From positions 139,252,001 through 139,316,000 of the forward strand of contig OZ260661.1 of assembly GCA_965285935.1 (NCBI GenBank): a DNA stretch of 64,000 nt, in the 5' to 3' direction. Numbering within the stretch: position 1 is the stretch's first letter; each line of letters starts with the position of its first letter. This DNA comes from Ophelia neglecta (Eukaryota). Under the pieces are notes generated by a model. That model saw nothing but the letters and a program-made list of their open reading frames with translations. It made no database searches and was not told the DNA's origin. Both the position numbers and the translations under genes were made by a program. Of this stretch, positions 18,800 to 22,318 are shown piece after piece.

Positions 18800-21700
18800 T
18801 TATTTGATCCCCTTAGCTGCTAGCTCCTCTTTGACTCTAGATAGGTAGGTAGGATCTGGGTAGCCGAACCTGTGAATAGAAAGATTAGTTAAAGAGATAA
18901 CAGAATAATACAAGGGGAAAGGAAAAAAAAAAGCAGGCTTACCTTGTGGTTCGAATATCATACTGTATACCAGTTACTTTCAAGAGAGAACAGTACCTAG
19001 CTGGCCCACCCGACATGTTAGTTTTGTGGTGGATATCATTCCAAGTTATTTGGTCATCCCGGCCTGTAGTTGTTGACCTCCCGATGGTAAATATCAGCCT
19101 GGCGTCAAACGCCCGTCTCAGCAGTCCTAGGACCTGGTTGCCTTCATCATTGTCTGGTAGGTAGGCCGTCTCACTGGTTGAACGATACCTGCGACCAGGA
19201 TTGGGGTGGCTTTCCTAAAATACAAACTCAATTACTGTGATAGCTACACTGGAGTTTCTACTTTTTTCCCCCACAAGTGTAATAGTATTGCCTGTAACAT
19301 ATATATAATGCCAGACTGTTAACTACCATCATAACATTTAACAAAAGTTCACTGTATATACCCTTATACAATTTTACCTCTTGCCTTCCGCCGGGGAAGT
19401 CATATTTGATTTCTATTGTACCGTGGCTATTATCAAAACCTGGAAGCCGGACATAGCAGTGTCTGGTTTTCATTAAACCATATGGCTGGTCTCCCTTCAT
19501 CTCCCCATAGATCTGACTGCATTTGGGGCAGATCGGTTTATTTTTGAACCAGGTATCAATGCATTCCTTGCAAAATACATGCTTGCAAATGGTAAGAACT
19601 TTTTTATTGGTCGGTGTTTCCATACAGATGGGGCACGTTTCCTCTGTATATGCTTTGTTTCGTTTTTCGTAACCGGGGACGTATGATGAGCCTGTAAAAC
19701 TCCTAGAAGATGTTGGAGGGCTGGAGCTGCCAACTGGTATTTGCTGATTATTGTACGACGCTCCTAGGCTGTGGGCTGCTCCTTGTGCAAACTCATCTGT
19801 TTTGATGACATGTTTAGAAGCATCATTGACGAGGAAACGTTCATACATCGGAGAAATGGAACATAGCTTTCCTAGGGCTACCGCCTGCTGGTAATGCAAC
19901 ATTAAAGCTTCTAGAAAGTCTTTATTGATATCAACAAAAGCAATGTCCCGGACTTTGGTATTCCCATTGCAACCAGTTATAAAGGCTTTGCATGCTTTGA
20001 ACATCTGCTGAGCAACTACATGGGCTGGAGAGCCGTAGATCCCTAAAGAGAAAATGGAAGGAATGGAGTTATATATAATATTTGAACATTTTTCGAATAA
20101 GAAGCCTATTAGAATAAACGATACCGTGCCCAAAAGACTTATTGACAAAGCTTGTATAGATATGTGTTTTTAGAAGCATGGGCCAGTTACCTGATCCTAC
20201 TGCCGGAATGGCAATAGATTGGAGGTTATAGCGGTCGGCCTCGGCCATGCTGTTCAAAAAGGCGCCATATAAAGCTATGGCCGCTTTCTCTTTGTCCATG
20301 TAGCCCTTCCATATAGGTCCTGCCACATGGATAATGCGTTTACATGGCAATTGGTATGCGCCTGTGGTGTAAACTTCAGATGTACCTAAAGAGCCATGTG
20401 TTTGAATACGTTCATCACATTCCAATTGAAGTTTTGGCCCGGCGGCTTTGCTGATGGCCCCGGCCACCCCTCCTCCATGTTTCAGTTGTGTGTTTGAGGC
20501 GTTGACAACCGCATCAACACGCAGCGTTGTGATGTCCCCTTGAAAAACATGAATCATCTCGCCATTCGTGGTGCGAAATGATGAACCAAGTTTGCCGTCG
20601 ATAATTTTTGTTTGGTCTTTAGCTAGTGTTCTTGTCCGTTTTACTTTTTGTTCCCGGCCTATATTTAGTTTAGTTTGCAAACATGTTTTGCTTTTTTCAA
20701 TATCTTCTTTTGGGCCAATTATGGAAATGACTCCATCAGTGTGATCAAAAAGTACATTTCCTTTAGGATCAGTGATGATTTCGATGGCTTTAGCAATATC
20801 TTCGCGCGTATTTTTTAAGGCAGAGACGTCCATCGTGACCTCGGATATTGACGTTTTGACTTTTGTAATGAGCTGTTGGAGGAGCGGGATTGCAATATCT
20901 ACGCATTCCTTTGCACCTTTCAGCACAATTGCACGCGTATAAAAACGCGTGGAGAGCTTAATATTATTTGTTCCACAAATATTGGCAAGATCGATTCTTC
21001 GGAAATTTACGATATATCGGTAAACATGGTTTGTTACATTAACATAGTATGTTAAGTTTCTGTTATGATCTTGGTATGGTTCGTCATCGATCCACACCTT
21101 CCCAGATGTCGGCTTGTTCCCGGAGACTTTGTCCTTTTCGCTTGAAGGGTATGCCGCTGTGTAATTTTTTCCGGAACTGACATTGAATTCTTCTTGTCTC
21201 ATGCTTTGCTGTCTTTGATCAAATTTCATAAGGTCATTGTATAACAGATTTACTATATCTTTGTTATCCCCGATTATAACTGTGCCATCATTGGTGTCGT
21301 CGCATATATATGTGTTCAAAGGACACACTTTCCTTTCGAGCTCTGCTGTATACACCATAGGCAAACTTTTCCAAACTAAATCGCCATTTTTGCTGATGCC
21401 TTGTAGCACATGCTTTAATTTCCTCAAGTAGTTTTCTCTGTACATCTCAACTTCTGGACATCCTCTTTTTCCAAAGATATTTATTTCTATATTGGCGTCC
21501 GCGATAGGTTTCTCAATGATAAAACATATGTCGTGTTCTTGCCAACCGGCATATTGCTTCAGGTGTTTATTTTTAAACCATAACCAATGAAATATATTAG
21601 CAATAAAAGTCTCTAGGTGTAAGCGTTCCTGTGAACGCTTATGATTTGGTTGGACGTCCTTAGGACGTGCTCCATTATGCCTAGCATGAGACGTGTCTGC

Positions 21701-22318
21701 AAACATATCCTTGGTGTGATCTAAGGTAGCATCTAATTGGTCGATATGTGTAGACCCTTGTTGAATTTCATTTGAATGGACAGAGTCAGAATTTGGTTCC
21801 AGATTAACGAATTTATTATTTTGCCCACTGATGTCGCTCTCGGTATTTCCGACATTTTCGTCCGCCCTTGCTCCCTGATCAGTTTCGTTTGCATCTTGAT
21901 CCATTTGCATTGTAATCGTAGGTTTCTGCGACTGCTGTTCGGAAAAAGTAGGTGAGTTTTCCTGTTTTGACAATTGGTCCTCTAATTTTACTCCACTCGA
22001 TCGTGTTGGTAGCTGTCTGCTTGAATTGTTGTCCGTTGTGGGTATCTGCCCCTCGCCCATATCTCTTTGATGTGGCGGCTCTTCCCCTTTTCCATTTTGT
22101 GTCGGTGGCTGGTCGTCTATTGAGACTGGTTCAGAGAAATATCTGCTGTCAAGGTACAATCCTATTGTTTGTACATTAGTCCATTTCCCCCTTATGTGTG
22201 CGTCTTTTTCCTGTACATATTTTAAGGTAGCTTCGTTGAGGTGAATGAATGCCCGATCTTTCTCGTCCAAGTTTAGACCAATTGTTTGTTTCAGAGTAGC
22301 ATGAATATCACCAAATAT
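18800..22318 (-). CDS. DTX3L: Macrodomain-RING-DTC E3 ubiquitin ligase (DTX3L-like) copy 2; exons 22318-20191, 20042-19378, 19214-18997, 18869-18800
   Basis: GT-AG introns in consistent phases (1,0,2). Macro motifs [24 protein letters not shown] and [36 protein letters not shown] motifs [30 protein letters not shown] and [21 protein letters not shown]. The symbol denotes similarity, not proven orthology. Confidence 0.9.

Follow-up and report, generated by a model that had tools for sequence, protein, structure and literature searches.

An invertebrate DTX3L-type gene of Ophelia neglecta predicted to join a macrodomain to RING and DTC in a single chain

We analyzed a window of 64,000 nucleotides from Ophelia neglecta (assembly GCA_965285935.1, contig OZ260661.1, positions 139,252,001 to 139,316,000 of the forward strand), and in particular one gene, copy B, on its minus strand at 18800-22318. 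Copy B is an invertebrate DTX3L-type gene, presumably spliced, and its predicted product is a single chain of KH-like folds, one macrodomain, a RING, and a DTC domain (Table 1). The architecture is widespread and already described in a preprint (see below); what we add is a census of active-site residues, an array of paralogs, and the linkage of this array to PARP14-like genes.

Table 1 Features of copy B and its paralogs (positions are those of the window)
Feature	Position	Strand	Remarks
Coding exon 1	22318-20191 (2128 nt)	-	Short conserved segment at the N-terminus, then low-complexity spacer, KH-like region, and first two thirds of the macrodomain
Intron 1	20043-20190, 148 nt	-	Phase 1, GT..AG; Gly codon of macrodomain loop 2 split
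Coding exon 2	20042-19378 (665 nt)	-	Macrodomain C-terminus, ~80-aa linker, C3HC4 RING (19635-19519), DTC start
Coding exon 3	19214-18997	-	DTC core; His equivalent to DTX3L H707 at 19031
Last coding exon	18869-18800	-	Phe at the DTX3L Y719 position, Glu equivalent to E733 (18826), stop TAA 18802-18800
Short coiled-coil-like exon candidates	22880-30979	-	Several of 84 nt, phase 0-0
Type I KH-like fold	20852-21061	-	AlphaFold2 block, pLDDT about 89-96; no GxxG loop in the sequence
Second KH-like alpha/beta unit	20669-20845	-	Equal strand-helix order, pLDDT 85-95; putative
Macrodomain, first part	20191-20584	-	Asp of GDIT 20536, second Asn of NASN 20494, HGGG middle Gly 20473
Macrodomain loop 2 Ile-Tyr	20040, 20037	-	In exon 2
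Copy A	11643-14032	-	96% identical to 18794-20855 joined to 22497-22825; lacks the acceptor and first ~488 codons
Copy C	54015-57094	-	Paralog with four exons, intact; 878 aa counted from its acceptor; HQGG in loop 1, GLYG in loop 2

Results

Gene model of copy B

The exons of copy B are separated by three introns of 148, 163, and 127 nt, all with GT..AG ends and in phases 1, 0, and 2, and when joined they form one stop-free frame of 1026 aa counted from the acceptor at 22318. Pfam recognizes Macro in exon 1 (E = 2.4e-28), RING (E = 3.8e-10) and the start of DTC in exon 2, and the DTC core in exon 3 (E = 5.1e-33). A C-terminal RING followed by DTC is the layout of Deltex E3 ligases; in copy B the two are in exons linked by canonical introns.

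The preliminary description held that the macro fold is split by an intron at GSG|IYG and completed in the RING exon, so that macrodomain and RING-DTC belong to one chain, and the gene model bears this out. When a macrodomain profile built solely from sequences of other species was aligned, its positions 5-134 fell in exon 1 and its positions 136-187 in the RING exon, on the initial 52 aa (E = 2.3e-9), and the spliced form scored 205.5 bits vs. 163.0 bits for intron read-through. A model in which intron 1 is read through was rejected: it runs into an early stop and loses profile positions 137-187. The intron at this site has GT..AG ends in all 40 loci with both macro halves, with lengths from 141 to 1717 nt. 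From the DNA and these conserved splice sites we infer that copy B is spliced into a macro-RING-DTC chain. DNA contigs of three runs (all of one sample, possibly the source sample of the assembly) span 19536-20855 unbroken and with 0 differences, and the adjacency of macrodomain and RING is therefore not an assembly joint. These contigs retain the introns, with no splice joints, and have no bearing on expression.

Position 22318 is a phase-0 splice acceptor and not a start; the pyrimidine-rich AG before it is common to copies B and C. Copy B has an in-frame Met 26 codons farther upstream, whose place differs in copy C. In copy C and in five close paralogs (L036, L038, L039, L040, and L064), the large exon is likewise preceded by coiled-coil exons of the kind found at 22880-30979, and the array in front of copy B is likely the 5′ part of its gene or of its subfamily. 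More copies of this exon array lie at 35.5-40.3 kb and 57.8-64 kb of the window (minus strand). The set at 36-40 kb has no accompanying large exon and may be part of copy B, from which it is parted by the element at 31.1-35.2 kb, which separates two groups of coiled-coil exons. This element (31127-35209, plus strand) carries a 1006-aa ORF with endonuclease- and reverse-transcriptase-like motifs and an overlapping, RNase H-like 263-aa ORF in another frame; we take it, by these motifs, to be a LINE-like retrotransposon.

KH-like region

Structure prediction, which the preliminary description had proposed as a check, gave an alignment-based AlphaFold2 model with a mean pLDDT of 79. In VIA-align its first KH-like unit matched KH domains such as vigilin KH12 (Z = 8.5, 74 aligned, rmsd = 2.1), and Pfam KH_DTX3L returned no match in copy B. 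KH-like domains N-terminal to the RING, in copy B with a predicted type I KH fold, are also a feature of the DTX3/DTX3L branch. In a profile comparison, the stretch before and including the macrodomain aligned with the region leading into PARP14 macrodomain 1 with a probability of 99.96, a value dominated by the macrodomain.

RRM_PARP14_3 had no listed match within the window, where 150 of 286 candidates were scored and the 5′ exons of copy B are putative; it does match upstream of some paralogs elsewhere in the genome. In comparison with human DTX3L, no RRM was found upstream of copy B among the candidates scored, and coiled-coil exons, its presumed 5′ part, lie there instead.

RING and DTC

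The RING is of the C3HC4 type that marks the DTX3/DTX3L branch, and not of the RING-H2 type of DTX1 and DTX2: its fifth ligand is Cys, which shark DTX3L (P0230) shares, and the DTX1 and DTX2 chains have His at this place. In the DTC, His993 and Glu1019, 26 residues apart, correspond to DTX3L H707 and E733 (mapped via an alignment with 3PG6 and the numbering of PMC10810221), and an alignment count finds both residues in all 29 stop-free paralogs and in 164 of 192 macrodomain-bearing homologs. Copy B thus shares with human DTX3L (BBAP) and the PARP9-DTX3L pair a KH-like region, a C3HC4 RING, and the H707/E733 pair. It differs from human DTX3L in having Phe at the Y719 position, where the 192 homologs have Phe (103), Tyr (59), or His (15); in DTX3L this Tyr is needed for ubiquitylation of single-stranded DNA, the Y719A mutant being defective (PMC11460948). 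By analogy, the predicted RING-DTC is likely competent to ubiquitylate ADP-ribose. Six degenerate DTC copies without an intact DIHHK motif (L061, L070, and L080-L083) are possible noncatalytic Deltex variants.

The protein might instead be a conventional lysine- or nucleic-acid-directed E3, with the macrodomain acting on separate substrates and the two activities uncoupled. DTX3L does also ubiquitylate single-stranded nucleic acids (PMC11460948), and the linker between macrodomain and RING is long and the least conserved part of the chain (23% mean identity among paralogs). We consider this improbable, given that the ADP-ribose-activating His/Glu pair is invariant among the stop-free paralogs and that the order macro-RING-DTC is kept from sponge to amphioxus.

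Active site of the macrodomain

The closest solved structure to the macrodomain of copy B is PARP14 macrodomain 1 (E = 1.5e-35 with the two-domain chain; E = 3.5e-26 with macrodomain 1 alone), and the modeled fold reaches Z = 16.5 to macrodomain 1 of both PARP9 and PARP14. Hydrolase-type macrodomains are marked by Asn/Ser together with Gly at loop 1 and, in loop 2, by a hydrophobic residue paired with an aromatic one (PMC10221186). We scored these four residues, and copy B passes with N609, G616, I711, and Y712; the Gly column was our choice, and all three candidate positions are Gly in copy B. The hydrolase-type motifs noted in the preliminary description are thus substantiated, and the macrodomain is likely of the hydrolase type and PARP14-macrodomain-1-like, as predicted from its residues. 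It resembles in this PARP14 macrodomain 1, the best match in both structure and sequence, and also PARP9 macrodomain 1, viral Mac1, and MacroD1/2.

Applied to vertebrate PARP14, the same test is passed by macrodomain 1 (22/22) and by neither macrodomain 2 (0/22) nor macrodomain 3 (0/22). In the census, from which domains under 135 aa were dropped, it is passed by 34 of the 40 paralogs, 36 of 105 homologs with a single macrodomain, 40 of 81 first-of-several macrodomains, and 23 of 118 later ones. As only 36 of the 105 single-macrodomain homologs pass, hydrolysis is not a fixed trait of the macro-DTC architecture; the site is eroded in the macro-DTC protein of the sponge Oscarella. Coral PARP14 macrodomain 1 with the hydrolase residues is active, and the paper reporting this also notes that mouse macrodomain 1 had previously been reported as inactive (PMC10221186). 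PARP9 and PARP14 macrodomain 1 take Ub-ADPr off nucleic acids in vitro (PMC10810221; see also PMC10499325).

A different reading is that the macrodomain serves mainly as a reader, which hydrolyzes little and passes the MARylated targets it binds on to the RING-DTC, in a manner similar to the recruitment of DTX3L by PARP9 macrodomains. Of the 40 paralogs, 38 retain the Asp of GDIT, the 69 of 105 single-macrodomain homologs that fail the hydrolase test retain the domain all the same, and an eraser beside a ligase would compete with it for one substrate. All four hydrolase residues are, however, present in copy B and in the 34 paralogs despite a mean pairwise identity of 56% in this domain, and PARP14 macrodomain 1 is described as binding relatively weakly while being active as a hydrolase (PMC13224862). 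We regard a mainly reading macrodomain as rather unlikely.

Kinship of the macrodomain

A tree built from the C-terminal part of the macrodomain joins the 40 paralogs with the first macrodomains of Deltex proteins of other invertebrates (0.91, 0.92). Five PARP14-like macrodomains of O. neglecta itself join vertebrate macrodomain 1 instead (0.90), apart from the paralogs, and their intron position differs from that of the Deltex-attached macrodomain; support for the deep nodes is moderate (0.73-0.92). We therefore rejected the idea that the macrodomain was recently captured from a neighboring PARP14-like gene, and the grouping points to the Deltex-attached macrodomain as an old separate lineage that is neither recently captured nor derived from PARP9. 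The 40 macrodomains form one clade (support 0.98), so that, within the fetched set, the expansion is specific to this lineage.

The preliminary description had read the gene as the PARP9/DTX3L partnership encoded in one polypeptide, and this identity was not upheld. Like PARP9-DTX3L, copy B couples a hydrolase-type macrodomain to the ligase and is linked to PARP14-type genes; unlike that pair, it has its macrodomain in cis and only the equivalent of macrodomain 1. Pfam finds no second macrodomain and no ART domain in its modeled exons, unlike PARP9 and macroPARP (two or three tandem macrodomains plus ART) and unlike PARP14, in which macrodomains 2-3, WWE, and ART take the place of RING-DTC. 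PARP9 is reported solely in jawed vertebrates (PMC10221186). Since the macrodomain groups with the Deltex-attached macrodomains of other invertebrates, the layout is better read as an ancestral state later split by vertebrates.

Distribution of the architecture

A first search found a single RefSeq protein, from an oyster, in which Macro, RING, and DTC occur together, and among the 120 listed matches (of 277) of a search with this protein, 91 had both Macro and DTC by Pfam label. With both searches pooled, 192 of the 236 proteins fetched have a macrodomain ahead of DTC; they range from sponge to amphioxus, and the count is not a frequency because the query selects for macro-DTC architecture. 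A survey of domain architecture had likewise been proposed in the preliminary description. Named carriers include bivalves (oysters, mussels), gastropods, Lingula, Owenia, corals, echinoderms (crinoids), and amphioxus. In the sponge Oscarella pearsei the carrier is a complete ORF on an assembled transcript, and some Logan contigs barely exceed the ORF (e.g., 1969 aa on 6428 nt) and are probably transcripts. The best homologs are about 55-62% identical to copy B in RING-DTC and 37-45% in the macrodomain. Copy B resembles the macrodomain-bearing DTX3L orthologs of nonvertebrates in having its macrodomain N-terminal to RING-DTC in one chain (10.64898/2026.04.23.720386), and differs from many of them in number: 85 of the 192 have 2-5 macrodomains, whereas the O. 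neglecta copies have one.

Two vertebrate entries with Macro and DTC (vole P0095 and toad P0222) were set aside as examples of the architecture: they have no RING and are probably merged annotations of neighboring genes. Both are within the 192; P0095 was omitted from the trees and P0222 kept. The Branchiostoma protein P0074 combines Macro-RING-DTC with further Pfam families, including PF13855 and PF00791, which we take to be LRR and ZU5, respectively.

Fusions similar to copy B do therefore exist in invertebrate annotations, as the preliminary description had supposed, but they have not gone unremarked: an April 2026 bioRxiv preprint (10.64898/2026.04.23.720386, section 5) already describes loss of the macrodomain from DTX3L with the emergence of PARP9. 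The main text of this preprint holds no active-site analysis and no tandem expansion; taxa and copy numbers may also be covered by its Figure 1d and supplements. The fused form is not mentioned in the term-matched passages of two reviews (PMC13224862, PMC12687431). In the literature searched, with subscription journals mostly outside it, we found no report of an array of such size or of activity assays on the invertebrate proteins. We conclude that macro-RING-DTC in one chain is likely the ancestral animal state, and that vertebrates keep the macrodomain in trans on PARP9.

The paralog array

The window holds three copies, A, B, and C. Copy A is a truncated copy or pseudogene, judging from its sequence, and its joint (20855 to 22497) is also present in the DNA contigs of all three runs. 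The 3′ flank of the gene is repeated three times (7050-11094, 15304-18064, and 49213-54857; 92-95% identity) as part of tandem duplications. A search of the genome gave 51 DTC-core matches at E = 6.4e-9 or better, with 43 of them within 136.27-139.67 Mb of contig C1. Among 59 stretches that we examined (56 fetched and three in the window), the macro exon was strongly matched in 45, and both macro halves were present in 40, 37 of the latter inside the 3.4-Mb interval. Human DTX3L is a single copy, vs. about 40 here. Four-exon models could be built for 35 loci, of which 29 are stop-free. One paralog (L045, C1 139.627-139.634 Mb) has three tandem RING-encoding repeats and a frameshift.

For paralog pairs with dS of 0.05-0.6, median dN/dS was 0.36 in the macrodomain (34 pairs), 0.69 in the linker (38 pairs), 0.17 in the RING (30 pairs), and 0.21 in the DTC (46 pairs), and few pairs exceeded 1. 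Between copies B and C, dS is 0.09-0.15 at both ends and 0.55-1.2 in the middle, an unevenness suggestive of exchange between copies.

Copy B might not be expressed or might be in decay, as one gene of a birth-and-death array, or its 5′ end might be disrupted: six of the 35 four-exon models have a stop or frameshift, copy A is 5′-deleted, the LINE-like element lies between the two upstream exon groups, and no start exon was identified for copy B. Its 1026-codon open frame with canonical splice sites and its dN/dS against copy C (0.32 in the macrodomain, 0.11 in the RING) make this very improbable.

PARP14-like neighbors

The Deltex array on C1 is interleaved with PARP14-like genes. PARP catalytic-domain fragments occur at nine places within the same 3.4 Mb (with weak exon-level E-values), and PARP14-type RRM exons and macrodomains are also found within 136.27-139.67 Mb; within the window, the PARP domain had no match among all 87 candidates scored. 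Three PARP14-like stretches were checked by tblastn with a fish PARP14 as query: C1 138.73 Mb and C9 62.56-62.58 Mb gave macrodomain and ART pieces, and C1 139.10 Mb gave ART pieces. Human DTX3L, PARP9, and PARP14 lie together at 3q21.1 (PMC11251020), and amphioxus has clustered PARP14 duplicates (PMC13224862).

PARP14-like genes with many RRM exons per gene form an expanded cluster at C1 137.1-139.1 and 140.4-140.6 Mb. At C9 62.55-62.58 Mb (L073, L087, and L088), a macro-RING-DTC gene stands head to head with a PARP14-like gene whose first macrodomain looks eroded, a layout that echoes vertebrate DTX3L-PARP9. Two further PARP14-type RRM arrays (C5 111-116 Mb and C9 15.8-17.6 Mb) have no Macro, DTC, or PARP match listed nearby.

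Discussion

By analogy with the human proteins, we think it somewhat probable that the single chain would act as a self-contained editor that both extends and erases the ADP-ribose marks made by linked PARP14-like enzymes. The neighboring enzymes, as their linkage suggests, would write mono-ADP-ribose on proteins or nucleic acid ends. The RING would then hold E2-ubiquitin, and the DTC His/Glu pair would activate the ADP-ribose 3′-hydroxyl to give a ubiquitin ester, as in human DTX2 and DTX3L; ubiquitylation of this hydroxyl by human RING-DTC has been reported (PMC7615817, PMC10810221). The macrodomain, for its part, would take off either ADP-ribose or the entire ubiquitin-ADP-ribose adduct, as PARP9 and PARP14 macrodomain 1 do, and the mark would in this way be limited or proofread.

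The human DTX3L, PARP9, and PARP14 genes are interferon-induced and antiviral. We infer an immune role from this and from the array, which is likely an innate-immune expansion. More tentatively, the ancestral animal DTX3L may have been a one-chain writer and eraser of the Ub-ADP-ribose mark, of which some 40 diversifying copies, interleaved with expanded PARP14-like writers, would here make up an immune locus for ADP-ribose and ubiquitin several megabases long, comparable in an invertebrate to human 3q21.

A ligase that ubiquitylates ADP-ribose while bound to a hydrolase that erases it has been called paradoxical for PARP9-DTX3L (PMC10810221). With a natural single-chain version, the coupling could be probed in a single construct by point mutations of one site or the other, and the paralogs provide natural variants with intact and eroded macrodomain sites.
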